Below the pieces are notes generated by a model. It worked only from the letters and a program-made list of their open reading frames with translations, did not search any database and was not told the origin of the DNA. Shown piece after piece: positions 27,346-55,073 of a DNA stretch of 64,000 nucleotides. The position numbers and the translations under genes are program-made. Each line of letters begins with the position of its first letter. Positions within the stretch are counted from its first letter, which is position 1. The stretch is from IMG/VR virus record IMGVR_UViG_3300005193_000001, positions 124,001 through 188,000 of that record; one strand, 5' to 3'. This stretch comes from an uncultured virus (IMG/VR IMGVR_UViG_3300005193_000001) (Duplodnaviria > Heunggongvirae > Uroviricota > Caudoviricetes).

Positions 27346-27421
27346 GCAGGGGGTGGAATGCGTGGAACTCCGGGCAACGACCGGGACTTCACCAAGAGCT
27401 CCACGCAGAGTTGAGCCCCCC
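27346..27421 (-). ncRNA. long hairpin RNA or terminator directly 3' of the suppressor tRNA
   Basis: GGGGG/CCCCC outer stem, 11-bp GCGTGGAGCTC/GAGTTCCACGC stem, CCGG/CCGG apical stem, followed by a T-run. Confidence 0.45.
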
Positions 27422-27425
27422 TATG

Positions 27426-27500
27426 AGCGGGAGAACGGATTCGAACCGCTGTCGCCAACCTTAGAAGTTGGGGTTATGGACCTTTCTAAACTACTCCCGC
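27426..27500 (-). tRNA. amber-suppressor tRNA (anticodon CUA), tRNA-Gly-like body
   Basis: Acceptor GCGGGAG/CTCCCGC + U73; anticodon arm CCAAC-TTCTAAG-GTTGG; T-loop TTCGAAT. Confidence 0.8.
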
Positions 27501-27564
27501 TGGTACCACGTGACAGAAAACCGCCCGTGGACCGTTCAAGTTTCATGAAGCTCTGTTGAAGAGA

Positions 27565-27831
27565 TTACTCCTCCACCACCAACACAGCCTCGTCCTCAAG
27601 AATGGCGTGATCGCCCTTCCAATCAAGACCGGATCGTGCAGAGTAATAAATAATATCACCCTCCTCGCAAGACTCGACTTCGGGTCCGGTTCGCACCACT
27701 TCGGCACGGTGAACAGCCTCTCCGGTCTGCTCAGGGAGATAAAGTCCCTGCTCAGTCTGCTGTTGGCTGCTTTCCTGAACGATGAGATTGTCTCGCGTCG
27801 GTGTACCTCTAACTGCTGTATGTGTAGCCAT
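27565..27831 (-). CDS. groES: GroES/Cpn10-like co-chaperonin
   Basis: PTRDNLIV...TEQGLYLP...AEVVRTGPEV...GDIIYY...ILEDEAVLVV. Confidence 0.8.
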   Translation of the reverse strand: MATHTAVRGTPTRDNLIVQESSQQQTEQGLYLPEQTGEAVHRAEVVRTGPEVESCEEGDIIYYSARSGLDWKGDHAILEDEAVLVVEE

Positions 27832-27903
27832 TTGGAATAATAGTTTATTAATTCGATTCACGAACCTGTTACGGTCCGTCCTTACTGCTTTATTAAATAG
27901 GTG

Positions 27904-28215
27904 TCAAAACATATCAAACAAGCGCTTCGCGATACCTTCTGCACACTTCACGTCTTCGAGCTCCGGGTCCGTGAAAGTATAAATCCTTGACTTGATGGAA
28001 ATGGAGCTACTTTCTTGATAAACTGTAAACTCGACCTTGAAAGACGCCTTCGACCTCTCTCTCGTATCATAAACGAAAGCTTGGATTATATCTCCGCTTT
28101 CGAAGGCTTTCTCGTATGCGGCCTCAGCACTAGAGTCTTTCGGTACGCGAAAGCTAGAATATTCGTTGTTCTCCAAAACCTCAAGTGACGTGCCGCTGCT
28201 TTTATTCAAAATCAT
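27904..28215 (-). CDS. hypothetical protein
   Basis: ORF coupled to the kinase gene. Confidence 0.5.
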   Translation of the reverse strand: MILNKSSGTSLEVLENNEYSSFRVPKDSSAEAAYEKAFESGDIIQAFVYDTRERSKASFKVEFTVYQESSSISIKSRIYTFTDPELEDVKCAEGIAKRLFDMF

Positions 28216-28675
28216 CGTATCTGTTCTCCATCATTTCGTACCAATCTTCGAAGTGCATGTCATCAACTCCCAGAGGATCTTTAACCCTGCTAACGCGCTT
28301 AATCACGGGAATCAGATACTCTTGTTCAGAGTCTTTAGCGCGTTCAATGCAAACCTCGGGAGAGGTGTGGAACTCCTTGAAAACGGTCTGGAAATTCTCG
28401 TCCCTGAACAGGTTCCGCCTCTCTTCGGTCGCCATCATAGAGTCCAAAATGACGACGTCGTGATGGTCGTGAAAAAGAGCTCGGACAGCCACCCTAACAT
28501 GCTTCCAGACAAGTGGTTCTGCCTGTTTGTTGTAGTGGCTACCATGCACGGCATATCTGAACCCGTCAACCTCCACTACGGGCCAACCGTGCTCTTCCAT
28601 CATTTCATTAATCCACGTGCTCTTCCCCGCTCTCGGGAGTCCGACAGTTGCTACTAACGTATCTTCCTCAGTCAT
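28202..28675 (-). CDS. P-loop kinase (AAA_33 / polynucleotide kinase-like)
   Basis: GLPRAGKSTW Walker A, VVILDS, EVCIERA. Confidence 0.8.
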   Translation of the reverse strand: MTEEDTLVATVGLPRAGKSTWINEMMEEHGWPVVEVDGFRYAVHGSHYNKQAEPLVWKHVRVAVRALFHDHHDVVILDSMMATEERRNLFRDENFQTVFKEFHTSPEVCIERAKDSEQEYLIPVIKRVSRVKDPLGVDDMHFEDWYEMMENRYDDFE

Positions 28676-28973
28676 GGGTATCTACCGTACCGTTTTTACT
28701 TTCAAGCATTCTTTCGAGTCTTTCGAGCTTATGGAGAACGCGATCCTCGACCTTAGACTTGTCGGTATGGAGGAGAATCAGTGTGGGTAGGAGAATGTAC
28801 ACGTCGGCAATCTCGTCCGCCCACTGGTCCGAATCGGCTCTCCCTTGTACCTGTTTCCCGAAAAGTTCGATAAGTTCTCCGATCTCTCCAATAGCGAGCT
28901 TTTCTTGACCTTCTTCCCCCCACTGGTCGATTGCTTCCTGAGCGGCTTCGAAAATTTGGTCCGTATGATTCAT
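28668..28973 (-). CDS. MazG-like NTP pyrophosphohydrolase
   Basis: WG...Q...AIGEIGELI...DEIADVYI. Confidence 0.75.
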   Translation of the reverse strand: MNHTDQIFEAAQEAIDQWGEEGQEKLAIGEIGELIELFGKQVQGRADSDQWADEIADVYILLPTLILLHTDKSKVEDRVLHKLERLERMLESKNGTVDTHD

Positions 28974-29242
28974 AAATTGTCGAAGTATTTGTAGTTGATA
29001 ATAGGCTTGTCTAGGGCTTCTCGGATGAGTTGTAAAGCGTTTTCGACGTCTTCTTTTGGCTCGTCGGAGTCCAAAGGTGATCGTACCTCAATAGGATTCA
29101 CGGAGCAAAGAACGGGCTCTCCGCTGTCATTGTAAAACACTTCGTGAACAGCGTGCCAATCTCCGTGCTGATTTTCATGTTTCAAGAGCCTATAATTAAA
29201 GCCGTCGATGTTATCCAAATCGCTTCCTTTTCCAGTGTTCAT
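28970..29242 (-). CDS. hypothetical phage protein
   Basis: NYRL...VHEVFYND.GEP motif recalled from small phage proteins. Confidence 0.6.
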   Translation of the reverse strand: MNTGKGSDLDNIDGFNYRLLKHENQHGDWHAVHEVFYNDSGEPVLCSVNPIEVRSPLDSDEPKEDVENALQLIREALDKPIINYKYFDNL

Positions 29243-29280
29243 GATAAAATTCGAAACGATGAGCTTTAGTTAATATAGAG

Positions 29281-29317
29281 GTGAGGGGAGCCAGCCCGAA
29301 AGCCAGCTCCCCTTCAC
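29281..29317. terminator. GC-rich hairpin, probable terminator
   Basis: GTGAGGGGAGC...GCTCCCCTTCAC inverted repeat in the intergenic gap. Confidence 0.5.
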
Positions 29318-29346
29318 CCCCCTCTTTCTCCCTTCAAGTCAAATGC

Positions 29347-29946
29347 CTAATTGACGATGAAGTCGTCTCCGTTAACCGAAATCTGGCGGATGGACTTCAA
29401 CTTGTAGTCTCGCAGGATTACCGGGTCTTCGACACCCTGACGAGAACTTCCGCTGGAGGAATAAAGGTACTCCTCCATGTCTTCGCGGGGGATGACGTTG
29501 CCGTTGGGACCAATGTACTCGGTCTCCAGAACGTTCTCCACTTTAGCCTCCAGGTAGAAGCTACCCTTATGCTCGACCAATGGAGTGCCTTCAACGCGCT
29601 CTCCCCACTGGCGGGGCTCAGGCTCGAACGGCTCGTGGTCTTCACCGTTCTCACGCTCTCGCTGGTAATTGACGGAGTTACCGTAATTAAAGTTAATCGT
29701 CACGTTAACCCGGCTCCGCTTCGTTACCAAGCAGTTCCCATCGTCGTCGTGAAACTCGTTGTAAGGAGTGCCACGACCATCCTCTGTCTTGCGCATCCGA
29801 GGCGTAGTTTCCGCCGTGAATGTAGCAAATGCGGCACGACGAGGAAGGTTTGCCAACATCTCCTTCAAGCCGTCCTGCGTGAGAACGTTAATGTCGGAGA
29901 TTTTGGTCTCGGAATCGAATGCAGCCTCTCGGATAGAAGATCGCAT
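29347..29946 (-). CDS. hypothetical protein
   Basis: 199-aa ORF preceded by the repeated promoter motif. Confidence 0.7.
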   Translation of the reverse strand: MRSSIREAAFDSETKISDINVLTQDGLKEMLANLPRRAAFATFTAETTPRMRKTEDGRGTPYNEFHDDDGNCLVTKRSRVNVTINFNYGNSVNYQRERENGEDHEPFEPEPRQWGERVEGTPLVEHKGSFYLEAKVENVLETEYIGPNGNVIPREDMEEYLYSSSGSSRQGVEDPVILRDYKLKSIRQISVNGDDFIVN

Positions 29947-30009
29947 GGCGTAAGGTGGTGGTTGATGAAAAAGTAGCTGCTGTCTCCTTCCTTCTGTTGC
30001 GGTAATTTA

Positions 30010-30034
30010 AACACGCGTGAGCATGTTGCGTTCC
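30010..30034 (-). promoter_or_regulatory. promoter motif GGAAC-N16-TGTT
   Basis: Intergenic copy of the repeated motif. Confidence 0.6.
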
Positions 30035-30055
30035 TGAACGCGTGTGAAGACTCTG

Positions 30056-30406
30056 TTAAAGCCCTGTGAACTCCTCAGTCAAAAGATCGGAAATCTCGTT
30101 TCCATCAACCACAATTTCTACAAGCCAACGACCGTACTTGCCCGTGTCGTCGTTCTTGTAAGTCCTAACCAAAATCTGGTCGGCCTCCGAAATTTTGCTC
30201 TTGACAAATTCCATGTGAGCCACGCCCCTCTCGTACTCGTCGCTGCCTTCCTCGACGTTATGAATCTCTGCGGTATCGACACCGAGAAGACGGGCTCTAA
30301 TATACCTCTTCGTCCTGAACCCAAGGTCCAGAAGAAGATCGAAGGTATCCCCGTCTACAACATTCTGGACTTGGGCTTTATAGGTGTAAGGGTGCATATC
30401 GCTCAT
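30056..30406 (-). CDS. thermonuclease (SNase-like)
   Basis: VVDGDT...RLLGVDTAE...GKYGRWL. Confidence 0.88.
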   Translation of the reverse strand: MSDMHPYTYKAQVQNVVDGDTFDLLLDLGFRTKRYIRARLLGVDTAEIHNVEEGSDEYERGVAHMEFVKSKISEADQILVRTYKNDDTGKYGRWLVEIVVDGNEISDLLTEEFTGL

Positions 30407-30418
30407 AAAGAAGTAAAG

Positions 30419-30775
30419 TTAAATCGAGTTCCTAAGACCCGAAAGAATTGAATCTACGTAGTCTTCGATGCAAAAGTATCTGGGCTCGTCGTTCACGTGA
30501 ACAAGCTCCTTCATTTCATCCGAAGAGAAGTCAATAGTTTTCACGGCATCTTCGCCATAGTCTTTGACGGCCTTTACCACGTTTCTTCCATTCAGGCTCA
30601 GAGAGCACATGATACTGTTTTCGGCGCTGTACTGGACCATGACAAAGACTTCGAGCCACAGGTTATCGGCAAGCTTTTTCTTGAAGGTAACTCTGGGCTT
30701 CGCGTGATTTTCAGTTACGTGATCAAAATCCAGTTCCGTTTCAACATCGAAGTACTTGGTTTCGTAGCAGTTCAT
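30419..30775 (-). CDS. hypothetical protein
   Basis: ORF in a tightly packed run. Confidence 0.55.
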   Translation of the reverse strand: MNCYETKYFDVETELDFDHVTENHAKPRVTFKKKLADNLWLEVFVMVQYSAENSIMCSLSLNGRNVVKAVKDYGEDAVKTIDFSSDEMKELVHVNDEPRYFCIEDYVDSILSGLRNSI

Positions 30776-31236
30776 TTAATATAAACGTCAATGACAAATT
30801 GTTCGAATTTTTCAGACATGAAGTCACGGACAAAATCTTCATCGAAACTGTCGTTCCAAACTTCAACCATCACATAGTTGTGATGAGAAGAGGTGGTCTG
30901 AAGTCTGTTCTTGAGATCGTCGGAATTTCGAATGGAAACGAGACCGATCTCTTCCGAGTAAATGATATCTGAGGGATCGTCGGGCAACTCCTCGTTATAA
31001 AGAGACTCTTCGGTTTCACGATGAAATACAGCCGCAGAAGAACCATAAGCAGAAAGGTTGCCATCGCTACTTTCAGATATAGCTCTGAAAACTGCTTCTT
31101 TGTGAGCAGACTTGGGACTGGCGACTTTCTTACCATCGATGTAGATGGCATGGCTCTCTTCGGCATGAACGTGCAGAACTTCAATTCCAGAGCCTTCAAA
31201 GGTGAAGGTAGGCTCGAACGGAAGATCTTCAAACAT
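30772..31236 (-). CDS. hypothetical protein
   Basis: Likely start MFEDLP. Confidence 0.55.
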   Translation of the reverse strand: MFEDLPFEPTFTFEGSGIEVLHVHAEESHAIYIDGKKVASPKSAHKEAVFRAISESSDGNLSAYGSSAAVFHRETEESLYNEELPDDPSDIIYSEEIGLVSIRNSDDLKNRLQTTSSHHNYVMVEVWNDSFDEDFVRDFMSEKFEQFVIDVYIK

Positions 31237-31546
31237 CGAATTCATCAAATTTTTTATAAAGATCGTCGTCGATTTCTTCTCCAAACACTTCTACCAAATA
31301 CTCTTCTTGGGTCATGGGCTCTATACGTCTGTAGTCTAAAGTGGACTTCCAAAGTTCTTGCACCGTGTCTCCGCTGGCCACCAAGGTCTCTTTCAGGTAC
31401 TCGAAGTCCACCTCTTTGTCCGGGCCTTCTCTTCTCTTATCGACCCACTGTCCGGGACCGTCCTCGGTGGAAACTTCGTTCCCAACGAGAGCAAACATGG
31501 TATCGAAGAAACGAGAGATACGAATCTCGTCGGCGTCGGGAAACAA
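31229..31546 (-). CDS. hypothetical protein
   Basis: Acidic ORF. Confidence 0.5.
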   Translation of the reverse strand: MFPDADEIRISRFFDTMFALVGNEVSTEDGPGQWVDKRREGPDKEVDFEYLKETLVASGDTVQELWKSTLDYRRIEPMTQEEYLVEVFGEEIDDDLYKKFDEFDV

Positions 31547-31584
31547 ATGGTGAAGCCTTCATAAAGCTTTCTTTTCTTGATCCA

Positions 31585-31791
31585 TTACAGTTCTTCTATG
31601 TTTCCACATTTTTGGCACTCGGCCACTTTGATGTAGTTTAGCCAAGCAAGCCCGAGAGTGAAAACAGACATAACTTTCTTCTCCGTCGTTACCTTACGAG
31701 TTGGTCCGGGATTCGGATGATTGTCGTAAAGGTAAACGTCGTGGAGAACTTCGCCTTGACATTTCTTACAATACCTTCTTTCAGAATCCAT
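31585..31791 (-). CDS. small zinc-ribbon protein
   Basis: CKKC...hydrophobic stretch...CQKCG. Confidence 0.55.
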   Translation of the reverse strand: MDSERRYCKKCQGEVLHDVYLYDNHPNPGPTRKVTTEKKVMSVFTLGLAWLNYIKVAECQKCGNIEEL

Positions 31792-31795
31792 CGGT

Positions 31796-32002
31796 CTATT
31801 CCGTCTGTTGCATTCTAGATTCTCCACAATAAGGACAGTACCGAAAAGGTGGACCTTCGTATTCAGGAAATCCAGAGTGCATCGTGGCAAGATTCATAAT
31901 GCCGCCGATTATAGAAACGTGTTCCATCCAATCGTTGCAGCACTCGTATTCAGGGTCTTTTAGCCCTTCCACCTTCTTATAAGACTCGTCGTCTTCACTC
32001 AT
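31796..32002 (-). CDS. small Cys-rich protein
   Basis: CC...FRYCPYCG. Confidence 0.55.
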   Translation of the reverse strand: MSEDDESYKKVEGLKDPEYECCNDWMEHVSIIGGIMNLATMHSGFPEYEGPPFRYCPYCGESRMQQTE

Positions 32003-32023
32003 AAGAACTTTGTCTTTTATTAG

Positions 32024-32125
32024 TCGTGTGGGCGGGACTCGAACCCGCGTTTCCGTGTGATCTCGGATTTGAACCAAGCCTCACCTCGACCTATCGGTCG
32101 GTGTTACCGGACGTTTTCCACACGA
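32024..32125 (-). ncRNA. tRNA-like RNA with two T-arms (copy A)
   Basis: Acceptor CGTGTGG/CCACACG-A; hairpin CGACC-GATA-GGTCG; CTTGG-TTCAAAT-CCGAG; GCGGG-TTCGAGT-CCCGC. Confidence 0.7.
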
Positions 32126-32129
32126 TTGG

Positions 32130-32545
32130 TTGTGTTTGCTCGCCGCAAACGGCCCTTCCAGCTTGCTCTGTACCGCTGATCAGACGGTAGGGGGCGCACC
32201 TTCAAAGTCGCTCACGGTGGTAGGCCACAACGGGCCAGCCGAGTGGGGCAGAGTCGAACTGGACCTCGCAAGTGCCAGCCGTGAAGCCAAGACACTCGCC
32301 CATCCACCCGGCTATTGCTTTTTTGGTGTCGGAAGCTATTCAAGGTATCGTTCGCCCTTCATGTTCTTCCGGAGAACGCAGTGATCGCTTTCAACGCAGC
32401 ACGCCGTCACGCTTTTTATCGCAGCGTGTTTACGGAATCGAACCGTCCAGTCCCGCTTCTCGTGGGTTCAAAGTTATGCGGATTCTGACCACTCTTGGCG
32501 GAGACCTGTCCCTGCTTTCGAGCCTGTCCCTTACTCGGCCCTAGC
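32130..32545 (-). ncRNA. candidate large structured ncRNA (or cluster of ncRNAs)
   Basis: About 415 nt without an acidic ORF; T-arm ACGG-TTCGATT-CCGT at 32432-32446; closed domain AGCCGGGTGG/CCACTCGGCT with T-loop at 32237-32313. Confidence 0.55.
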
Positions 32546-32643
32546 GTTTCCATATTTTAGTCTTTCGTGTTCCCCTTTGATCTTTCGATAAAGTTTCGAC
32601 CCATCCATGGCTTTCTCGTCTGTCAATCAAATGTTGGGGCCTA

Positions 32644-32958
32644 TTAACTGCTCGAATCTTGAAGTTGTTCCGAAGAAACTCGATCTTCATCTGGATTTAA
32701 TCTGGGCTTTGGCACCATGCCGTAGGCTACTGGAAAAATGACGAACATAAGATAAACCATCCAGAACCAAATGTTGGTAATTTGAAGAGCGGTAGTTGCA
32801 TCCAGGATCATGGTAAAGGAGAGAATAGCTGCCGCGATTCGAAAATACTGCCTGTAGATCTTCGGCTTCTCGTTGCTCAGCCAGTGCAACAGGTAGGTGG
32901 CACCCGCAAACACGGCTATAACCGCAAAAAGTATGAGAAGCGCTACGGGAGTGCTCAT
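32644..32958 (-). CDS. membrane protein
   Basis: Three hydrophobic helices. Confidence 0.65.
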   Translation of the reverse strand: MSTPVALLILFAVIAVFAGATYLLHWLSNEKPKIYRQYFRIAAAILSFTMILDATTALQITNIWFWMVYLMFVIFPVAYGMVPKPRLNPDEDRVSSEQLQDSSS

Positions 32959-34155: not shown

Positions 34156-34158
34156 AAG

Positions 34159-34635: not shown

Positions 34636-34729
34636 GTGGGCGATCAGAGATTCGAACTCCGTTAACCAAATTGATGGATTCGAACCATCGTTCACGGTAG
34701 CGAGCCGTGTTCCCAGGATTATCGCCCAT
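34636..34729 (-). ncRNA. tRNA-like RNA with two T-arms (copy B)
   Basis: Acceptor GGGCGAT/ATCGCCC-A; hairpin CACGG-CTCGCTA-CCGTG; GATGG-TTCGAAT-CCATC; CGGAG-TTCGAAT-CTCTG. Confidence 0.75.
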
Positions 34730-35667: not shown

Positions 35668-35743
35668 TAGCGGGGGCAGGATTCGAACACTGCGTATGCG
35701 TGGATATGAGCCACGTCTGGAACCAGCCTCCAGTTACCCCGCA
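35668..35743 (-). tRNA. tRNA-Met (CAT), initiator-like
   Basis: TGCGGGG start with unpaired 1:72; CGTGG-CTCATAT-CCACG; one-base bulge in the T-stem. Confidence 0.75.
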
Positions 35744-36357: not shown

Positions 36358-36460
36358 TGCTTCTGGTGGGATTTGAACCCACGGCCTCGGGGTCGAGCGC
36401 ACTCGGTCAAGGACCGATTCACGTAGTGCCCCGCGCTCTGCCGAACTGAGCTACAAAAGC
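36358..36460 (-). ncRNA. tRNA body with a 36-nt structured insert in place of the anticodon loop
   Basis: Intact acceptor, D and T arms; CGGGG/CCCCG stem encloses CACTACGTGAATCGGTCCTTGACCGAGTGCGCTCGA. Confidence 0.8.
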
Positions 36461-40264: not shown

Positions 40265-40496
40265 CAAAGGAGAAAAAGCCTGTAGCCCGGATTCTGTTAT
40301 TTCAACCTATCATCTGCCTTTACGCTCCCTACCCACCCATTATCGGTCTGCTCACCACCAAATAGGGCTGTTCGGGATTTCACCCTCTCCGGTTAAGAAC
40401 GAACCTCTCGGTTCTCCCGGATTAGAGCAGAGGTGTCCGGAGCTTCCTCACGAACGACAAAAGCCGAACGTGCGATAGGTCAGCTTCCTTCCTTTG
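40265..40496 (-). ncRNA. rnpB: shortened RNase P RNA
   Basis: P1 CAAAGGAAGGAAGC/GCTTTTTCTCCTTTG; P2 CCTATCG/TGATAGG; P4 5' GAGGAAGCTCCGGAC and 3' ACAGAATCCGGGCTA; internal AGGGTGAAA and GAGCAG elements in the expected order. Confidence 0.85.
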
Positions 40497-40677
40497 AAGG
40501 GTCTTCAAAATTCGAGAGATCCGTGAGGTACCACCAGAGCCGCGCCGTAGGTACAAGAATAGAGATACTGACCAAAAAACCGGACGTAGAGCCTTCTCTG
40601 AAACTGATAGCCGTGTTGACAAAAAGACCAACCACCAACGCGAGATAATAAACTGAAAGTTCTACGCGACTAACCAT
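40480..40677 (-). CDS. small membrane protein
   Basis: Two hydrophobic helices; 3' end overlaps the rnpB P1 5' strand. Confidence 0.5.
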   Translation of the reverse strand: MVSRVELSVYYLALVVGLFVNTAISFREGSTSGFLVSISILVPTARLWWYLTDLSNFEDPSKEGS

Positions 40678-44261: not shown

Positions 44262-44422
44262 CGACGACGGCGAGACTTGAACCCGCATGCACGCCCCGCT
44301 AAGTGACGTACATTTTAGGAGGCTATCCTATTTGCGCCGAAACACCGTGGCTAACGGCTTCGGGTTAGAGGGTCCCCCCTAACCGCTGGCGGCGATTACC
44401 GATTGCTCGCCACACGCCATCG
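44262..44422 (-). ncRNA. 160-nt tRNA-like RNA with multiple inserted hairpins
   Basis: 8-bp acceptor CGATGGCG/CGTCGTCG, D-like arm TGGCGA/TCGCCG, T-arm GCGGG-TTCAAGT-CTCGC, four internal hairpins; promoter-like motif at 44441-44465. Confidence 0.7.
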
Positions 44423-44921: not shown

Positions 44922-45445
44922 ACTGTAACTGGAAGTTCAACGCTTGTGTTAAATTCTGCAGCGGCTTTTACGGCACGCTGAGCCAATTTGACGGGATTAT
45001 CTTCTTTCATAGCAGCCATAGCCCCATAAGCCTCTCTCGCTCCAGTTCCGAGGGCGAAGAAGGGTTGATCAAAACGAATGACGGAAAAGTCCTTCTGAAC
45101 TTTGAATATTTTGTTCTTGACGGCCAGAAGAAACATTCCTCCTTCTTTTCTGTTGTTTTTTATCTTCGTAAAGCCCTTGCTTTCTAAAACGTGTCGGATC
45201 TTAGGAAGGAGAACGTCTATGGCGTAGAACCTTTCGCTTTCCGAATTTATATCGGGAGGACACAAATGGTGCTCCAAGATTTGACCCATCCTGAAACTCG
45301 TCGTATACCCCAAAGCCAACTCAATGCCATCGAATTTAAGAACCTTACTATTCCGAGACTTTCTCGTGTGATGGTTGCCCACACAGGCCGAGTCTCCAGC
45401 CAAAATAGCACCGGGATCCGATTCCACTCCTACAATACAGGTCAT
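44900..45445 (-). CDS. Ntn-hydrolase peptidase (HslV/proteasome-beta-like)
   Basis: N-terminal M-T-CIVG...AGDS, SKV, ALGTG...AYGAM. Confidence 0.8.
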   Translation of the reverse strand: MTCIVGVESDPGAILAGDSACVGNHHTRKSRNSKVLKFDGIELALGYTTSFRMGQILEHHLCPPDINSESERFYAIDVLLPKIRHVLESKGFTKIKNNRKEGGMFLLAVKNKIFKVQKDFSVIRFDQPFFALGTGAREAYGAMAAMKEDNPVKLAQRAVKAAAEFNTSVELPVTVCRTTSV

Positions 45446-45936
45446 CGTACGATACTTTCTATTTTTCTACAATCCTTTGCCGTTATGCCAACTGAAGGGT
45501 CCGTCTTGACGAAGTTGCTTTTGTGTCCGACTTTAGCACCGGGATTGTCGTCCACCACGACGTAATCTTCCTCCAGCCCCACGTCGGAAGCTTCTCTATG
45601 AAGCCACCGAGATATTACGGCCCCACGAGTGTCACTCTCTCCAAGCCCCCACGCCGAAATCTGTCGAGGTCCGGTAGTATCGACGACGGGACAGTTGTAC
45701 CAACCGTAGAGAGCCATAATGGAGGCCAATTTCTCCGGGCCGTGTCCCTGTCTCCAAGAACTCGACCACACGACGTGAAACCCCATCCTGTCAACTACGG
45801 TTCGAACGAGCCCAATCCTAACAGGGTCGAGCCTCCATGGACGACGGGCGGAACCGTAGCCCTCGAAGGCTCTACAAGAGTCCGAAGAATTCAGAACTCC
45901 ATCTACGTCAAGAAAAAGAAGGGGCGGTTTACTCAT
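45442..45936 (-). CDS. HAD-family phosphatase (Swiss-army-knife RNA-repair type)
   Basis: LFLDVDGVLN, VWSSSWR, RG..I..WL, YVVVDD. Confidence 0.85.
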   Translation of the reverse strand: MSKPPLLFLDVDGVLNSSDSCRAFEGYGSARRPWRLDPVRIGLVRTVVDRMGFHVVWSSSWRQGHGPEKLASIMALYGWYNCPVVDTTGPRQISAWGLGESDTRGAVISRWLHREASDVGLEEDYVVVDDNPGAKVGHKSNFVKTDPSVGITAKDCRKIESIVR

Positions 45937-46120
45937 CGTACACGTCGGTTTCGGCTTTCGTGGCTCGTCCAGACGTGGACGCGCTAAACTTGTCACTTAC
46001 GTCCGCTCTGGTTTCTCCATCTTCGAGCACAACGAACTGGTGAGGCTCGTAACTGGAGGGTTGCATGATGATGAAGTCCGCTCCGGGAGGAACGTCTTCG
46101 AAATCGATGTACAAATCCAT
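45929..46120 (-). CDS. hypothetical protein
   Basis: 63-aa ORF coupled to the HAD gene. Confidence 0.45.
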   Translation of the reverse strand: MDLYIDFEDVPPGADFIIMQPSSYEPHQFVVLEDGETRADVSDKFSASTSGRATKAETDVYDE

Positions 46121-47934: not shown

Positions 47935-48030
47935 TGGTGCCGTTATAGGGATTTTCACCCTTGCATCGTCAATCGTACGCCTCTGCTGATGATCTTCTAA
48001 CATCGGTCAAGGTCTTCAAACGATAACGGC
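47935..48030 (-). ncRNA. tRNA-like RNA: 8-bp acceptor + 4-bp T-like arm + ACCA, non-tRNA interior
   Basis: GCCGTTAT/ATAACGGC-ACCA; AGGG-TGAAAAT-CCCT. Confidence 0.6.
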
Positions 48031-49761: not shown

Positions 49762-49786
49762 AAAAAACGGGGGCCTTTCGCCCCCG
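49762..49786 (-). terminator. rho-independent terminator
   Basis: CGGGGGC-GAAA-GGCCCCCG followed by TTTTTT on the minus strand. Confidence 0.7.
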
Positions 49787-49818
49787 CTGTATTCCGATGC
49801 ACTAAGTGGCCGTGCTGT

Positions 49819-50754
49819 TTAGATGATAATGATAATGCCACCATCGTCGCCACCGATGTTTACACCGTCTTCTGCGCTCCCGTTTACATTGTTATAGAGA
49901 AACACAGGGTCTTGATTGTCGGTATCTATGTACTCATCCGAGACCTGAAGCTCCAATAGAACCGAAGCCGTTCCGTCGCGGTACTGTCCCGGCGCAAGGT
50001 TGATTGTCCCCTCACCAGTATCAAACGTAGCACCACTTCGGTTCTGGAAGTCTGCTCCGTTTCTTGCAGTAGTGCGGTCGCCCGCGTCTATGCCACTTGG
50101 ATCGATTCCGACGCCGCCAAGAGGCGTGTCTTCAGTAAATAGACGGCCTGCAAGGGCAGAAGCATTTCCCTTACTGTTTTCAAGGGTCACTTCGAACTGA
50201 TTCCCGTCGCCAGCGAACTGAAGATTTGCATTGAAGCTCAGGCCAAACTCTGTGAAGAGGGTTGCATCTTGATCATTGTTGTCACCGCCACGAAAATCAA
50301 CTTCCGTGACCTCTCCTGAATTAACGACCACGTTTCCGTCGCCGTCTCCGGTTGTGGCAAACACAATGGCGCTGTTGCGGTCGGGAGTGTTGTAGTCCCT
50401 GAAGCCCAGAAGATCTACGTCATAGTCCCCTGCGGGAACCACAAACTCCGCAACGACAGTACCGCCGGACTTCGGGTAGTTAATCCCGAAGTCTTCGCGG
50501 GTTTCGCCGCTTACGTCGCCCGTTCCGTTAACAAAGACATTGAGCTGGTCCCCTTCTTCAAGAGACGAGGCTTCACGGGTAATGGTCGTGTTGGCTTTCG
50601 CTCCGCTACTAGCCGGATTCTTGATGGTCAAAGTCAACTCTTCCATTTCTTGCTCTTCTTGCATACCCGAGCCGCCACCGTCACAGCCGACCATAAGAGC
50701 CGGAAGAGCGAGAAAAAGCAGTGCGGTGGTGAAGTTTCGAATTGTAGTAGTCAT
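49819..50754 (-). CDS. lipoprotein, beta-rich
   Basis: Signal peptide with LMVG-C lipobox; 311 aa; own promoter motif. Confidence 0.75.
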   Translation of the reverse strand: MTTTIRNFTTALLFLALPALMVGCDGGGSGMQEEQEMEELTLTIKNPASSGAKANTTITREASSLEEGDQLNVFVNGTGDVSGETREDFGINYPKSGGTVVAEFVVPAGDYDVDLLGFRDYNTPDRNSAIVFATTGDGDGNVVVNSGEVTEVDFRGGDNNDQDATLFTEFGLSFNANLQFAGDGNQFEVTLENSKGNASALAGRLFTEDTPLGGVGIDPSGIDAGDRTTARNGADFQNRSGATFDTGEGTINLAPGQYRDGTASVLLELQVSDEYIDTDNQDPVFLYNNVNGSAEDGVNIGGDDGGIIIII

Positions 50755-50798
50755 GGTTACAAGCTTTCTATTGTTGAGTGTAAAAAGTGAACTGAGTC

Positions 50799-50823
50799 AA
50801 CGAAAAGCTGGAAGTGGCGTTCC
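50799..50823 (-). promoter_or_regulatory. promoter motif GGAAC-N16-CGTT
   Basis: Upstream of the lipoprotein gene. Confidence 0.65.
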
Positions 50824-50926
50824 AAAGAAAAGAAAGCTTAACCAAAACTTCACAGACTCGATACATGGGCAAGCAAAAGTAGACTGAAAGACTCGGAAAC
50901 CACGGGTAGACAAAAAAGAAGTGTAG

Positions 50927-51001
50927 TTGCCCCGGAGGGATTTGAACCCACGACTCTCGGCTTAAAAGGCCGCTGCTCTAACCTGACTGAGCTACGGAGC
51001 A
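50927..51001 (-). tRNA. tRNA-Lys (TTT)
   Basis: Cloverleaf; loop CTTTTAA. Confidence 0.92.
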
Positions 51002-51116
51002 TGGTTGGAGGCTTTCCACCCCACTTGGCTAATGCTATTAGCTCACTGTTCGCCTTTTCGCTACCAACGATGGGCTTGGATTGCCGCTTGAACGGTCCTA
51101 AGGTCAAGCAAGGTTG

Positions 51117-51305
51117 TTAAATCATCGAAGGACCACCTTCTCCAAAGATTTCTCTCAAGCTTTTGTCCGTTTCAGTGTGGCCTGGAAGAAAGTCAACGTC
51201 TCCGTCTATCGTGTTTCCAGACTTCAACAGGACGAGGAAATTGTCGTCCTTCAACGCATATTCTCCGCCGTTATCTTCGAATTCATCAATCTCAACAAGT
51301 TTCAT
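51117..51305 (-). CDS. hypothetical protein
   Basis: 62-aa acidic ORF. Confidence 0.5.
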   Translation of the reverse strand: MKLVEIDEFEDNGGEYALKDDNFLVLLKSGNTIDGDVDFLPGHTETDKSLREIFGEGGPSMI

Positions 51306-51330
51306 AAGGATTTTGCTTCTTTATGATTAG

Positions 51331-51405
51331 TACTGCTTCTCGGATTCGAACCGAGGTTTCCGGCTTGAAAGGCCAGCGTCCTGGACCAGACTAGACGAAA
51401 GCAGC
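51331..51405 (-). tRNA. tRNA-Glu (TTC), second copy
   Basis: Near-identical to 48230-48304. Confidence 0.93.
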
Positions 51406-51426
51406 ATATGTAAAATGCTCTATCTT

Positions 51427-51690
51427 CTATAACAAAGCGGTCTTCTCCGGTGTCATAAGGTCGTCGGAAATGACCTCCGACGAATCGACGTAATTTTCAA
51501 GAACTTCTCGGTCGGCAGGACCTTCCGTGGGCGTCGTCGGACCATCAGGGTTCGGATCGACCGGAAGGTCTCCGTCTTCGTCGTTTCGTCCTTCGTCATC
51601 ACTACCGCCCCAAGACAGAGAATCAATATACTTGAAAAAGAGATAAACCACCGTTAATCCCAAGGACGTCAAAAAAGTGGCTAAAAACAC
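51427..51690 (-). CDS. membrane-anchored acidic protein
   Basis: N-terminal transmembrane segment, D/P-rich tail. Confidence 0.55.
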   Translation of the reverse strand: MFLATFLTSLGLTVVYLFFKYIDSLSWGGSDDEGRNDEDGDLPVDPNPDGPTTPTEGPADREVLENYVDSSEVISDDLMTPEKTALL

Positions 51691-51718
51691 CTTTCTCTTT
51701 TTGTGGTTTAAGTATTAG

Positions 51719-51793
51719 TACTGCCAGCGAGATTTGAACTCGCGTTACCGCCTTGAGAGGGCGGCGTCCTGGACCGAGCTAGACGATGGCAGC
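51719..51793 (-). tRNA. tRNA-Glu (CTC)
   Basis: Cloverleaf; CCGCC-CTCTCAA-GGCGG. Confidence 0.93.
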
Positions 51794-51936
51794 AAAGTGG
51801 AGGGAATCTCACCCTCCTGTCGCTTGGATGGTTCCACGGTCAAAGCGAATAATAAAAAGTGCCGCGCTCTTCGCTCTATCGCTAAAGGCAATAAGCACGG
51901 CTCCGGGTCGGGTCGTACAAGTCCCGCCGTTGCGAG

Positions 51937-52014
51937 CGAGTGGCACGGGATTCGAACCCGTAGGCCCCAGCTAAGGGTTTACCATATGGGGCGGGCCAGT
52001 GCCCCGTCCCACTC
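51937..52014 (-). ncRNA. tRNA-like RNA with expanded anticodon region
   Basis: GAGTGG/CCACTC acceptor, ACGGG-TTCGAAT-CCCGT T-arm, GCCCCA/TGGGGC stem enclosing 17 nt. Confidence 0.6.
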
Positions 52015-52389
52015 TTAGATCTCTTGATCACCCTTTTTGCCGCAAAGGACTTTGGGGGATCTGTCGGCCTCAACGTACATGAACTCTCTTCCCTTAGGAA
52101 ATTCGAGAGTCATAGTAGAATCTGTACTGCTCTTGATTTCCCACTCCGTTCCTCCGGGAAACCTAATAGTGTTTCCTTCGTACTTGACGGTTCGAGGAAA
52201 GACCATGCAGTCTCCTTCGCCGTTAATGCTCCAAACGAAGAGAATCCTCGGACCAAAGTTCAAGTAAACCGTTCTGTCTTTGTCCTGAAACTCGTGTCTG
52301 AGGTATTTCGCGTCGTCGTCTTGCCCATGGGCAAACGAAAAGGAGCCCAAGAAGAGGAACACCGCGATCACACTGAGAAGCTTTTTCAT
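52015..52389 (-). CDS. secreted hypothetical protein
   Basis: MKKLLSVIAVFLFLGSFSFAHG signal peptide. Confidence 0.65.
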   Translation of the reverse strand: MKKLLSVIAVFLFLGSFSFAHGQDDDAKYLRHEFQDKDRTVYLNFGPRILFVWSINGEGDCMVFPRTVKYEGNTIRFPGGTEWEIKSSTDSTMTLEFPKGREFMYVEADRSPKVLCGKKGDQEI

Positions 52390-52417
52390 ACCATTTTTGA
52401 ATTTAAGAGTCAAGATA

Positions 52418-52642
52418 TTAGTCTACGGATTCAAGGCTGTCGAGGTTAAGAACGTGATAGACGTTGTCCTCCTCGTTAACGGAAGCAATTTCGTTTCCTT
52501 CGGCTTTACGATTAGCAGCCCAATCCAGCAAAGTAATCGCGTTGTTCAGGAGCTCTCGGGTAGACAGCCCACCGAGCTTTCTCTTCATTTCGTCCAACGC
52601 CTTCTCCTGTTCCTCCGAAAACTTTATACGAACTTCAGTCAT
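52418..52642 (-). CDS. ribbon-helix-helix-like DNA-binding protein
   Basis: VRIKFSEE...LDEMK...STRELLNNAITLL. Confidence 0.6.
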   Translation of the reverse strand: MTEVRIKFSEEQEKALDEMKRKLGGLSTRELLNNAITLLDWAANRKAEGNEIASVNEEDNVYHVLNLDSLESVD

Positions 52643-52684
52643 AGCGACAAATGTAAATAAATGGGTTACATCCAACAAAGCGCT

Positions 52685-52781
52685 TGCTCGTGGATCGCTG
52701 TCCGGACAGCAACCCCTCGGGTCACGCTCCCTACGCCGCCGACACTTTCACACGACGCCCATCTTGGCTGGTTAACGAGCA
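52685..52781 (-). ncRNA. candidate structured ncRNA (about 97 nt)
   Basis: Terminal stem TGCTCGT/ACGAGCA; hairpins GCTGT-CCGG-ACAGC and GTGAAAG-containing loop; non-coding. Confidence 0.45.
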
Positions 52782-52784
52782 GTT

Positions 52785-52835
52785 TGGTGGAGCAGTCGGA
52801 TTCGAACCGACGATTACTGACCAACAGTTACTCCA
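52785..52835 (-). ncRNA. 51-nt tRNA minihelix-like element ending in CCA
   Basis: TGGAGTA/TGCTCCA-CCA, single hairpin ACTG-TTGGT-CAGT, T-arm GTCGG-TTCGAAT-CCGAC. Confidence 0.6.
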
Positions 52836-53580
52836 ACAAGTTTTCTATTTCGTAATTTTTCGCCCACCTTATATTTCCAGTATTTGTTTTCGGGTCTTCT
52901 ACTCTAAGGTGTATCCCTCTTTTTGGAGCATCGCTAAACTCAACTCCATAAACCTTATTTGTCTCTGAACAGTATATGGCAAACAAGTCTATGTCATCTT
53001 TATGATAAGACCCGCTTTTATTTATATTTTTATTGTACGAGTTTCCACTTCTTTCTAACTTTGCTACTATGCAACCATTTTTATAGTTTCCATTTTTTAC
53101 TTGCAGTTTCAAAAACCCATTCGAACTTTCAATCAAAAGGTCTTCTGCCGACCTCACTACTGGTTCATATATTTTATATCCTAATTCTACCAGTTTGGTT
53201 CTAACTTTCTCTTCCGCCAGAATTCCCTTATGTCGTTTTGAACCTAAAAACTCTTTTTTTGTTTTTGCTTTTCTCGGCTCTTTCGGTTCTTTTTTCAACT
53301 GGTCTTTTGTTTCTTTAGTCGTATATTTTACAACTGTCGTTTTAGATACACCTAAATTTTCCGCAACTGCGCTTACTGTCTCCCCACTTTTTCGAAGAGA
53401 GTTTATTTTCCGTTCTTTTTCTTTGCTTATCTTTTGTTGCTTTTTTCCAGTATCTTCAAGCCCCGCTTGCTTACAGTGGTAAGCTACCGTGCCTTTCGAG
53501 CAGTCAAGCTCATTTTCAATTTCACGATAGCTTTTACCCTCTTTTCGAAGTCGGATTATATCTTGCTTATACTTGCTCAT
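52828..53580 (-). mobile_element. free-standing homing-endonuclease-like gene: two HTH domains + PD-(D/E)XK nuclease (I-Ssp6803I-like)
   Basis: G.SYREI...L.CSKGTV HTH; KGILAE...DLLI...KLQVK...Y...DIDLFAIY; Lys-rich and visibly AT-richer than its flanks. Confidence 0.8.
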
Positions 53581-53675
53581 TAAACTTACTTAATTTGAAC
53601 CGTGTGCATTATTATATATACTTGCGGTTCAAAACTTTTGGTTCAAAAAGCCTATTTCAAAGCATATTCAAAAAG

Positions 53676-53748
53676 GGCGAGTGCTCGGATTCGAACCGAG
53701 ACTAAGGCGACCACAACGCCTCGTGCTACCGATTACACCACACCCACC
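53676..53748 (-). tRNA. tRNA-His (GTG) with encoded G-1
   Basis: AGGCG-TTGTGGT-CGCCT; G-1:C73. Confidence 0.93.
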
Positions 53749-53798
53749 ATATTTACGCAGCGGGTTAGACCAGACTTGCCAATGCCCCACATGTTCCT

Positions 53799-54056
53799 TT
53801 ATCCGATAAGCTTCTTGCGACCGCTCTTCTGGAAATCTTCCTGCTCCTTGAATGCTGCTCCGTAAGCGGCCAAAAGCCGATCAAGCAAGACACCTCCCGT
53901 GACGCTGAGAGAAAAAGAAAGAGGAGCGAGAATGAGGTGCGTAATCAGAAAACCGATAAAGTAAGGTCGGCCCTGAGGACGCACGAAGAAGTAGTTCTCC
54001 ACCGTCATGTAAAAAGTCCAGAAGATAGTAAAGGCGAGATAAAGATAAAAGAACAT
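53799..54056 (-). CDS. membrane protein
   Basis: Two hydrophobic helices. Confidence 0.6.
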   Translation of the reverse strand: MFFYLYLAFTIFWTFYMTVENYFFVRPQGRPYFIGFLITHLILAPLSFSLSVTGGVLLDRLLAAYGAAFKEQEDFQKSGRKKLIG

Positions 54057-54098
54057 TCAGTGTCGTTGTTTAAGTTACAAAGTGTCACTTGATTTTCG

Positions 54099-54171
54099 TC
54101 CCCCCGGCAGGATTCGAACCCACGTCGTTCTCGATCCGAAGTCGAGCGCCTATCCACTCGGCCACGGAGGA
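54099..54171 (-). tRNA. tRNA-Arg (TCG)
   Basis: CTCGA-CTTCGGA-TCGAG. Confidence 0.9.
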
Positions 54172-54187
54172 ATGTGTCGGATGCTTT

Positions 54188-54212
54188 AACACCCGAACAG
54201 ATCCGTTGTTCC
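54188..54212 (-). promoter_or_regulatory. promoter motif GGAAC-N16-TGTT
   Basis: Upstream of tRNA-Arg(TCG). Confidence 0.6.
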
Positions 54213-54233
54213 GGATTCACAAGAGCTTCAAAG

Positions 54234-54304
54234 ATGCCCCCCTCGGATTCGAACCGAGACTAACGGCTCCAAAGGCCGCTGTCCTACCATTAGACCAGGG
54301 AGCA
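54234..54304 (-). tRNA. tRNA-Gln (TTG)
   Basis: GCGGC-CTTTGGA-GCCGT. Confidence 0.92.
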
Positions 54305-54444
54305 ATATATCGGTTTTGTTGTCGTTTTTAGGTACCGCATTTTGTGGGGAAACCGAAAACCCCTCAAGGCTATTATTTCAAGCCTTCAGCACCCCGGTTT
54401 CAGCATGTTTGTTACCGGAAAGCGATTGAGAGCCCAAGTGAACG

Positions 54445-54780
54445 TCATTGAGCAGAATCTTTGTACTTGTCTTCAATTTCGGAAAGCTTTTCTTGAATCT
54501 CGTCAATCTCACCAGCGTCGATGTACTGAGGCATTTCCCAAGGTTCTTTGACCTTCCAAGTCACGTAATGATGAAGGCTCTTGTCTTTCGTGCAACCGAA
54601 CATGAAAGTGTCCTCCTCTATGCTTCCAAGAATTTCGTCGAGAACCTTGGCTTCGTACCTCACGAAATCGTCGTTTTCAAGGATTTCAGCAATTTCCACG
54701 ACCAAAGCCATCGACTTGTCGGTATATTGCACCGTGTCTTCCTCTTCGAGATTAAGTCGCTTTTCCTTTTCTTCCACCAT
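54445..54780 (-). CDS. hypothetical protein
   Basis: Likely start MVEEK. Confidence 0.55.
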   Translation of the reverse strand: MVEEKEKRLNLEEEDTVQYTDKSMALVVEIAEILENDDFVRYEAKVLDEILGSIEEDTFMFGCTKDKSLHHYVTWKVKEPWEMPQYIDAGEIDEIQEKLSEIEDKYKDSAQ

Positions 54781-54805
54781 AAATTTACGTTCGTTGAATG
54801 AAAAA

Positions 54806-54898
54806 GAAGCCCGAGTATGGCGGTATCTCAAGAACGCCTCGGCAACCGCTGGTGCAGATACGTCATTAGCTCCCGCCTATCCTGCAAATTCGGGCTTT
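54806..54898 (-). ncRNA. candidate three-way-junction ncRNA
   Basis: AAAGCCCGAAT/ACTCGGGCTTC closing stem; TGCAG/CTGCA and GCGGT/ACCGC arms; directly 3' of tRNA-Ile. Confidence 0.5.
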
Positions 54899-54916
54899 AA
54901 AAGCTTCTATACGGTG

Positions 54917-54993
54917 TCGGCCCGGAAGGATTTGAACCCTCGACTGACCGGATATATCAGACCCGCGCTCTGACCAGACTGAGCTACGAGCCG
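54917..54993 (-). tRNA. tRNA-Ile (GAT), divergent second copy
   Basis: CGGGT-CTGATAT-ATCCG. Confidence 0.8.
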
Positions 54994-54999
54994 ACTTAG

Positions 55000-55073
55000 T
55001 TCAGGTGGCCGGATTCGAACCGACAACCTCCAGCTCTTCAAACTGGCACTCTACCGAATTGAGTTACACCTGA
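55000..55073 (-). tRNA. tRNA-Phe (GAA)
   Basis: CCAGT-TTGAAGA-GCTGG. Confidence 0.88.

Follow-up and report, generated by a model that had tools for sequence, protein, structure and literature searches.

A tRNA island in the genome of a T4-like jumbo phage from brine, which infects a bacterium, carries a reduced RNase P RNA, a number of tRNA-like elements and a copy of the ribosomal L1 stalk amid its ordinary tRNA genes, and the question raised by this locus is whether these RNAs operate as one dedicated machine or only share an address. The stretch that we analyzed, referred to as the window, comprises the 64,000 nucleotides (nt) from base 124001 to base 188000 of a single 263,015-bp contig (IMG/VR record IMGVR_UViG_3300005193_000001), which IMG/VR and CheckV rate as a 100% complete virus record. 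A first-pass annotation had proposed that the phage uses tRNA ends as a processing scaffold to release cargo RNAs that are matured by its own RNase P RNA. Our analysis points to a different answer, to which we assign a probability of roughly 60%: three kinds of neighbours, namely a mini RNase P RNA, tRNA-derived elements and other translation-related mimics, lie in one tRNA island and form no single machine.

The first kind of neighbour is represented by one gene:

40267 to 40491, minus strand: mini RNase P RNA of 225 nt with a type-A catalytic domain (Rfam RNaseP_bact_a, RF00010)

At Rfam gathering thresholds, the window returned tRNA matches alone; using an E-value threshold, RNaseP_bact_a matched these positions at 63.2 bits (E 4e-17) across model positions 1-367, and RF00010 was both the best Rfam family for this RNA and the one kept after Rfam clan competition. 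The alignment includes P1-P3, CR-I, P5, P15-P17, CR-IV and CR-V. When the helices are read directly, P1, P2 (7 bp), P3, P4 with a bulged U, P5 and P15-P17 all pair, the P6 pseudoknot is formed by CUGCU and the AGCAG of the P17 loop, and the P15-P17 region carries a GGU-containing GGGUAGG loop. The specificity domain (S-domain; P7-P14, CR-II and CR-III), which reads the tRNA elbow, is reduced from about 140 model positions to 44 nt, which comprise a 5-bp stem enclosing 'GAG' and a 4-bp hairpin with a GAGA tetraloop of the GNRA kind, and P18 is absent (23 model positions reduced to 1 nt). The protein subunit RnpA (PF00825) had no match in the phage genome, in a search that was positive as a control in 10 of 14 genomes. 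A 65-codon hydrophobic open reading frame (ORF; 40480-40677, minus strand) has its stop codon inside P1/P2 of the RNase P RNA.

An ortholog of this RNA is found in LR756508.1, a 484-kb uncultured phage that comes closest of all phages in the collection searched (65.6% identity in the major capsid protein), where it measures 226 nt, scores 49 bits and adjoins tRNA-Ser. From one phage to the other, P4 changes from CCGG to CUAG on both strands, and P6 changes in a compensatory manner from CUGCU/AGCAG to CCGCU/AGCGG. In a MAFFT alignment of eight sequences, P4 has seven of seven pairs in all eight, with compensatory changes, and P5, P6 and P17 covary; across 22 pairs (P4, P5, P6, P16 and P17), 97.1% of the cells are paired, 13 pairs have changed on both sides, none of 500 shuffles reaches any of these measures and slid partners stay at or below 47%, these counts leaving out P1-P3 and the S-domain remnant, which MAFFT misaligned.

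Further members were sought with a pattern consisting of CR-I and CR-V 122-152 nt apart, a spacing far below that of cellular RNase P RNAs; the pattern also requires CCGG in P4, so that variants such as the LR756508.1 ortholog escape it. Among viral contigs it found five loci, three of which (contigs of 124-191 kb) have Rfam RNase P matches of 207-221 nt among tRNAs, and in metagenomes it found 65 loci. An nhmmer profile built from four seeds accepted 28 non-redundant sequences, plus one locus identical to the window and one repeating a viral contig, with the metagenome pattern loci L021, L040 and L071 left out of this set. Three pairs of P4 are not constrained by the pattern (those at the two variable positions next to the bulged U and the one that involves the fixed A), and these are complementary in 28 of the 28 nhmmer-accepted loci versus 5 of 37 pattern matches that nhmmer rejected; at each of two unconstrained positions, three pair types occur among the 28. 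In all, this kind of RNA is present at about 30 additional loci from phages, metagenomes and tRNA arrays, and two members exceed the RF00010 gathering score (L004, 118.5 bits; L140, 163.5 bits). A same-strand tRNA starts within 45 nt past CR-V in 10 of 33 mini forms and ends within 70 nt ahead of CR-I in 8 of 33.

Taken together, these comparisons indicate that the phage does encode a strongly reduced RNase P RNA and that selection acts on it. The first-pass annotation had placed a phage-encoded mini RNase P in the tRNA cluster, a claim that is borne out by the Rfam match, the LR756508.1 ortholog and the covariation.

The same pattern run over one genome per species (185,579 species) gave 44 matches, few of them real. 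One lies in a Micromonospora isolate genome (L164 1462-1691), where a 230-nt mini RNase P RNA (86 bits) sits amid at least 23 tRNAs in 3.1 kb, and another (L152 584-792; 209 nt, 65.5 bits) lies on a 13-tRNA contig of a cellular genome record that also has an 83-nt tmRNA-like match; both RNAs are arranged head-to-tail within dense tRNA arrays. In a metagenome-assembled genome of Candidatus Shapirobacteria (L141 1472-1677), the archaeal model gives the best match to a 206-nt RNase P RNA, exceeding its gathering score with 103.8 bits; this RNA may be the own reduced RNase P of this bacterium of the candidate phyla radiation.

The surroundings of the mini RNase P gene are rich in tRNAs. ARAGORN reports 34 tRNAs for the window, every one on the minus strand, and 47-49 for the whole genome; Rfam adds one tRNA cut by the window end and a 103-nt tRNA at 36358-36460, and a covariance model built from phage tRNAs (R1) adds one more:

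35668 to 35743, minus strand: unusual tRNA-Met(CAU)-like gene, matched by R1 over its full length at 38.2 bits

On the R1 scale, the class I tRNAs behind the model reach 53-79 bits and four other genuine tRNAs 37.5-49 bits. The tRNA-Met(CAU)-like gene combines a U1xU72 mismatch with a D stem of 5 bp and a T-loop of 8 nt, and was called by ARAGORN with -ps80 and -mt, with no call by default ARAGORN or by Rfam. A tRNA with a CUA anticodon (amber suppressor type; 'Pyl' in ARAGORN) occurs at 27425-27500 (minus strand) in the phage and at 434334-434405 in LR756508.1.

A feature shared by the tRNAs and the tRNA-like elements is an encoded C74. It is present in 47 of 47 ARAGORN tRNAs of the genome, mostly without C75-A76 (N75 is U in 29), and in 8 of 8 tRNA-like elements checked (C frequency 0.23). 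The same C is near-universal in most other phage arrays that we looked at, the exceptions being L039 (0/5) and L060 (3/9). The idea that C74 is tied to the mini RNase P was rejected, as these two arrays without the C74 rule carry the same RNase P subtype.

The second kind of neighbour was delimited by a strict scan that required a 5-bp T-stem, a [U/G]UCRA loop and seven pairs with a directly abutting upstream strand. It yielded 44 pairings on the minus strand, which are the real tRNAs, their alternative partners and five non-tRNA elements, versus one pairing on the plus strand. Strict orphan T-arms number seven on the minus strand of the island, 14 on the remaining minus strand of the 263-kb genome and five, mostly with poor loops, on the entire plus strand; their enrichment in the island is real. 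Other islands with a mini RNase P have 0-2 orphan T-arms per 1-6 kb, with none in 4 of 10 loci examined, and three L1-stalk loci counted alongside have 2-3 each. The elements of the window, including weak and decayed ones, are:

32025 to 32124, minus strand: 100-nt tRNA-derived RNA gene with 8 Watson-Crick acceptor pairs, T-arm, A73 and C74
32238 to 32310, minus strand: degenerate 73-nt tRNA-Ala(GGC)-like cloverleaf, called by ARAGORN only at -ps90, with C74 kept
34638 to 34727, minus strand: 90-nt tRNA-derived RNA gene with an 8-bp acceptor stem, tandem T-arms and C74
36358 to 36460, minus strand: tRNA body with a 29-nt hairpin insert in the anticodon loop and intact acceptor, D and T arms
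44263 to 44421, minus strand: 159-nt tRNA-derived RNA of class-II-like layout with an 8-bp acceptor stem and T-arm
47936 to 48029, minus strand: weak candidate with a 9-bp closing stem followed by CCA, directly 5' of tRNA-Val
51936 to 52014, minus strand: tRNA-sized (77-79 nt) pseudo-tRNA, called by ARAGORN only at the relaxed -ps90 setting, with C74
52788 to 52835, minus strand: 48-nt tRNA-His-type relic with acceptor stem, a 4-bp hairpin with a 5-nt loop and T-arm

Five of these (32025, 34638, 36358, 44263 and 52788) have a perfect acceptor stem of 7-8 bp stacked on a 5-bp T-arm, with a T-loop of the form UUCRANU and a non-tRNA interior. In three elements with an unrecognisable interior, 13 of 13 top-half pairs are kept. 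Where the D and anticodon arms would lie, the interior of 32025 has a tetraloop hairpin and another hairpin that resembles a T-arm (fold z -2.85, 0/200 shuffles), and R1 matches its T-arm alone (17.3 bits). That of 34638 has no D stem and includes an anticodon-like arm with the loop CUCGCUA (fold z -1.77, 12/200 shuffles), the two T-arms giving R1 matches of 17.7 and 11.2 bits. In 44263 (fold z -2.45, 4/200 shuffles), we found a D-arm-like hairpin with a 7-bp stem and GG in the loop, two extra hairpins, a small anticodon-like hairpin and a long, 11-bp variable-arm-like hairpin. A 1-nt indel affects the loop of this element's first hairpin: at 44401, a contig in two of the four DNA runs is one base shorter. 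The fourth, 36358, scores as an Rfam tRNA at 55.7 bits (fold z -2.05); its anticodon 'loop' is a 36-nt structured segment, which ARAGORN -i reads as tRNA-Glu(CUC) with a 29-nt intron at 32/33.

The remaining candidates are less well preserved. The cloverleaf at 32238 reaches 8.8 bits with R1 and a fold z of -1.07, and is likely a pseudo-tRNA. At 51936, the D and T arms are preserved along with six of seven acceptor pairs, the anticodon stem is disrupted, and R1 finds the T-arm only (15 bits; fold z -3.04). The stem at 47936 can be read as 8 bp plus A73 if the last A is taken as the discriminator, and encloses an atypical T-like hairpin with the loop UGAAAAU (fold z -1.74, 9/200 shuffles; no R1 match). 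In two runs, a contig joins 47934 to 48045 via 10 other letters and so deletes this weak element; the flanks of that joint are just 20 letters, and its source may be another organism. Two further places, 33338 and 48041, offer a T-arm-like hairpin only and fold no better than shuffles (z +0.35 and +0.65). Overall, fold z lies between -1.8 and -3.0 for six elements, and 32025, 34638, 44263, 51936 and 32238 are not tRNAs by model, with T-arm-only or 8-18 bit R1 matches and no entry in the Rfam lists. Thus, of the ten mimics that the first-pass annotation had listed, five stand as perfect acceptor/T-arm elements, two are decayed cloverleaves, 47935 is weak, and 33338 and 48041 are unsupported. 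Its check against Rfam and ARAGORN recovers the RNase P RNA and the tRNAs and gives 36358 a tRNA match in spite of its 36-nt anticodon 'loop'; most elements match no family.

The origin of the 48-nt relic can be read from its neighbour:

52828 to 53580, minus strand: gene for a helix-turn-helix (HTH) plus PD-(D/E)XK homing-endonuclease-like protein (Pfam PDDEXK_5 4e-21, HTH_38)

This gene sits between tRNA-His and the relic, and its stop codon falls in the 5' acceptor strand of the relic. Its homolog in LR756508.1 is 54% identical and adjoins a tRNA-His that precedes it; this tRNA-His is matched by the relic in T-arm and 3' strand (UGCUCCACC), with a compensatory T-stem change. The relic itself lacks the D arm, has a 5-nt anticodon loop and scores 21 bits with R1 (fold z -2.31). 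From these sequence relations, 52788 is a tRNA-His relic linked to a homing-endonuclease gene.

Do the elements belong together? By blastn, the elements and inserts share only T-arm similarity with one another and with tRNAs, and for the island as a whole, tRNAs and two protein genes were all that blastn matched in the phage collection. Covariance models built on 44263 and 32025 as single sequences found no homolog in the phage, in all of LR756508.1 or in 12-16 other islands (802-814 kb), their best other matches being ordinary tRNAs at 17-25 bits, and no covariation was found for the elements. The oddities of the LR756508.1 island differ, and include two sub-threshold YrlA-like RNAs and a 108-nt Ala-type acceptor/T-arm RNA among others; the latter lies at 414,805-414,911 and has a G3:U70 pair. 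Promoter-like sites are at chance (10 found versus 11.1 expected; 6 versus 7.1), the sole one near 34636 having its -10 hexamer within the element, and terminator-like sites are at or below shuffle expectation. Two candidate explanations for the inserts were rejected, namely repeated mobile hairpins, with no second copy in the phage or LR756508.1, and group I introns (RF00028), with no match in the phage genome at E <= 1; only two weak matches turned up elsewhere, in LR756508.1.

These results show the elements to be heterogeneous (an insert-bearing tRNA, two decayed tRNAs, a tRNA-His relic and three singletons) and not one family or array. Several earlier proposals are narrowed by them. That two elements sit behind their own promoter motif does not hold, given that such sites occur at chance, and covariation among homologs, named as a way of checking the elements, did not materialize for 44263 and 32025, which have no detected homologs. 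The argument that well-paired stems speak against simple decay keeps its force for 32025, 34638 and 44263, where selection can be argued; 51936 and 32238 are decayed, and 52788 is a relic. The processing scaffold survives in so far as acceptor stem, T-arm, N73 and C74 are kept in several elements; one array or system is unsupported.

The third kind of neighbour is a ribosomal mimic:

54807 to 54897, minus strand: 91-nt mimic of 23S rRNA helices 76-78 (L1 stalk), directly 3' of tRNA-Ile

It matches Rfam LSU_rRNA_bacteria at 45.4 and 39.2 bits (E ~1e-10, model 2125-2216) and resembles the L1 stalk in its conserved AGGAUAGG.GGGAG / UGA.AUACC.CC core, with a compensatory change. It differs from the L1 stalk and from L1 autoregulatory operators in that it is free-standing behind a tRNA, outside rRNA and not upstream of rplA/rplK. 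Of the 16 matches that a pattern for this RNA gave in viral contigs, two are real rRNA and eight match Rfam LSU as stand-alone copies, seven of them 80-84 nt long and the eighth 228 nt; tRNA genes are also present at three of the stand-alone loci (L087, L088 and L091). A partnership with the mini RNase P was considered and rejected, the mimic being absent from LR756508.1 and the other loci compared, including mini-RNase-P loci. Two large viral contigs have L1-stalk-like pattern matches at a distance of about 750 nt from type-P1 twister ribozyme matches (L093 3308-3362 and L096 3309-3363), which at 44.3 bits stay below the threshold of 67.2.

We propose a model in which these neighbours meet at the level of tRNA processing. 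The mini RNase P RNA would most likely assemble with host RnpA, which we propose because the phage has no RnpA gene, and would cut the 5' leaders of about 50 phage pre-tRNAs. An enzyme devoid of the S-domain is expected to read the acceptor stem, the leader and the 3' end with its C74, and not the T/D-loop elbow, and the likely gain, at a time when tRNAs are expressed massively, would be capacity for processing or freedom from the RNA subunit of the host. In this reading, the RNA is a selected and probably active subunit of an elbow-blind enzyme, which has to borrow the host protein. About eight tRNA-derived genes keep the processing half of the molecule (acceptor stem, T-arm, N73 and C74), with the anticodon half inserted into, replaced or lost to decay, and each would have arisen singly by insertion, partial duplication, decay or homing-endonuclease-driven rearrangement. 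Their shared C74 and intact acceptor and T stems suggest that they are handled by tRNA-processing enzymes, and they are probably cut from the same precursor transcripts, and excised by the same enzymes, as the tRNAs. At most 36358, 32025, 34638 and 44263 may have acquired a non-decoding role. The L1-stalk copy would join them simply as another translation-related mimic. What the sequences show directly is how the RNase P RNA is built, conserved and covarying, how the elements are laid out, the C74 rule and the tie between relic and endonuclease gene; from these we infer catalytic activity, host RnpA use, element excision and any element function alike.

Several observations weigh against this model. 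In 32025, 34638 and 44263, unrecognisable interiors lie beside perfect acceptor and T stems, a combination that fits a purposeful RNA better than an accident and is the reason why selection is argued for these three. A search for RNA runs containing the phage returned none. LR756508.1 was the only relative searched as a whole genome, such that missing homologs may reflect the scarcity of available relatives. With regard to the RNase P RNA, its score lies below the RF00010 gathering score of 100, and the gene is flanked here by protein genes, with no adjoining tRNA to define the ends of the RNA.

One rival is an integrated system, in which tRNA top halves act as handles for releasing cargo RNAs that would serve either as protein sponges or as decoys to engage anticodon nucleases or tRNA sensors, and the phage's own elbow-blind RNase P is tailored to them. 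Such a system could draw on top-half determinants that include C74 in all eight elements, on five elements whose acceptor and T stems are perfect while their interiors differ, on an RNase P that, being S-domain-less, would accept odd lower halves, on the rich set of tRNA repair and maturation genes in the genome, and on the countering of tRNA-targeting defences by phage tRNAs described in the accessible part of PMC13096335. We nevertheless consider it unlikely and, as a 'system', not supported: beyond the T-arm the elements are not homologous to each other, 44263 and 32025 are without homologs in LR756508.1 or other islands, the mini RNase P occurs in islands free of orphan T-arms (the 4 of 10 loci above), several elements are plainly decayed tRNAs or an endonuclease relic, and promoters are at chance level. 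Moreover, a D-loop-like GG is still present in most elements, which leaves no need for an elbow-blind enzyme. The cargo release, decoy function and dedicated link to the phage RNase P that it presupposes would each have to be added to what the sequences offer. Equally doubtful is a version of self-contained island modules, in which the elbow-blind RNase P and a host protein would mature both the tRNAs and purpose-built top-half decoys or sponges; the tRNA body with a hairpin for an anticodon, the double-T-arm RNAs and the 159-nt RNA would then be aimed at tRNA-targeting defences or tRNA-binding factors, and the free L1-stalk copy would be a further member of a counter-translation toolkit.

Two other explanations dispense with top-half cargo altogether. 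If the RNase P RNA were no enzyme, being instead a sponge for host RnpA that blocks host tRNA maturation or a decaying rnpB fragment, and the elements were neutral debris, the sub-threshold Rfam score, the lost S-domain and P18, the lack of a phage protein subunit and the two elements folding no better than shuffles would all be accounted for. We regard this as quite improbable, since decay is at odds with P4, P5, P6 and P17 having been kept by double compensatory changes across 8 to 28 sequences and with intact CR-I, CR-IV and CR-V; a sponge would need the protein-binding part alone and not the P4/P6 core; and debris is hard to reconcile with the 13 of 13 top-half pairs kept in three elements despite unrecognisable interiors. 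Very improbable, in our estimate, are interrupted tRNAs whose inserts are removed and whose halves are rejoined by the phage ligase, kinase and phosphoesterase set into working tRNAs. Removal of the 29-nt insert from 36358 does give a 7-nt loop with the anticodon CUC, ARAGORN reports 'introns' of 175-193 nt in two LR756508.1 tRNAs and RNA-repair enzymes are abundant in the phage; however, the insert lies at 31/32-33 and leaves a loop with G33 rather than U33, group I introns are missing from the phage, no splicing-endonuclease family turned up in Pfam scans of 268 ORFs, and no excision gives 32025, 34638 or 44263 a cloverleaf accepted by ARAGORN or R1. On balance, three kinds of neighbours in one island remain our preferred account.

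The genomic background of the island is that of a T4-type myovirus, with Pfam matches for the Gp23 capsid protein, T4 portal, gp25, gp32, a RecA-like protein, a family B polymerase and an intein-bearing terminase, and with peptide deformylase, Cpn10 and DnaJ as markers of a bacterial host. Three proteins contain inteins with LAGLIDADG or Hint domains, namely the large terminase (L011:9422-12211), a DnaB-like helicase (L007:1717-4158) and an SNF2 helicase (L009:13116-15962). The phage was found in four DNA runs, all from one brine-metagenome study, which have the same sequence and offer no informative population variation. By capsid protein, phages of Microcystis, Flavobacterium and Rhodothermus follow after LR756508.1, with which synteny is limited to 15 scattered protein matches; viral-contig searches with three phage proteins as queries gave no confirmed relative. 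The Pfam scans also revealed the tRNA maturation genes for a CCA-adding enzyme and a Thg1-like enzyme, a T4 Rnl1-like RNA ligase and two further ligases (three or four counted overall), a 2'-5' ligase/2H enzyme, 2H-SAK and HAD-SAK domains and two PNK-like kinases. One of these genes lies within the island and is given as context only, separate from the RNAs:

45442 to 45996, minus strand: HAD domain protein of the 'Swiss Army Knife' RNA-repair kind (Pfam HAD_SAK_2 2.8e-23)

Phage tRNA islands, as exemplified here, yield many half-tRNAs via insertion, decay and endonuclease traffic, and these should not be read as a designed array absent conservation or expression data; a few, whose top half is intact down to C74 and whose bottom half has been remodelled, make good candidates for tRNA mimics that do not decode. 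The mini RNase P would join the list of translation parts carried by large phages. RNase P RNA is considered a ribozyme universal to cells, and a recurrent form of about 205-230 nt that lacks the specificity domain and is borne by phages and tRNA arrays would be the smallest natural bacterial-type RNase P RNA and a natural experiment on the catalytic domain acting alone. In the literature searched, which did not extend to subscription journals and supplements, no description of a virus- or phage-encoded RNase P RNA was found, and in the accessible part of a 2024 history and review of RNase P, phages appear only as sources of substrates (PMC11143913).

Compared with known systems, the elements share with the tRNA-like domain of tmRNA, with YrlA (RF02553) and with mascRNA an acceptor/T-arm module that is read by RNase P and other tRNA enzymes. 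Relative to the window elements, YrlA is circularly permuted. No window element reaches the tmRNA or YrlA models: the tmRNA (RF00023) match at 52785-52865 has just 16 bits (E 0.014) versus a gathering score of 47, ARAGORN at its default threshold reports no tmRNA, the one YrlA match in the window (23.3 bits) overlaps two ordinary tRNAs, and no TROVE domain turned up in Pfam scans of the phage ORFs. The YrlA-like matches in the LR756508.1 tRNA island (L082 25637-25737 and 23530-23649, minus strand; 43.8 and 27.5 bits) have the same T-arm. RNAC and RNAD of T4 have tRNA-like ends. In the part of PMC3014915 that describes them, RNAC and RNAD (species 1 and 2) are small non-tRNA RNAs of the T4 tRNA region with unknown roles, and the elements here are likened to them by this description as non-tRNA RNAs in a T4-type tRNA region, being themselves singletons without detected homologs. 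That tRNA arrays include pseudogenes is mentioned in the portion of PMC8421152 consulted.

For the tRNA-His relic at 52788, the fitting precedent is T4 SegB, likewise a product of an endonuclease gene between tRNA genes. According to the available portions of PMC2330249, PMC13096335 and PMC8421152, this free-standing endonuclease cuts within tRNA genes, with co-conversion, segmental amplification and cluster rearrangement as outcomes; SegB is of the GIY-YIG type, whereas the phage gene here is of the HTH plus PD-(D/E)XK type.

The mini RNase P RNA itself resembles type-A RNase P RNA (E. coli M1 RNA, rnpB; RF00010) in CR-I, CR-IV, CR-V, P1-P5 with the bulged-U P4, P6 and P15-P17. It departs from that family in its length (225 nt versus about 330-400 nt), in the single stem and GNRA hairpin that stand for P7-P14, in the loss of P18, and in being phage-encoded, with no cognate protein gene and a score under the gathering threshold. 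A precedent for an active RNase P RNA reduced in this way is the minimal type-T RNA of Pyrobaculum and other Thermoproteaceae, which has lost nearly all of its S-domain and reportedly retains catalytic activity (Lai et al. 2010, cited in the accessible part of PMC7191817). Type-T RNA belongs to an archaeal lineage, works with archaeal proteins and is the sole RNase P of its cell, whereas the phage RNA is of type-A descent and would act as an extra enzyme beside that of the host.

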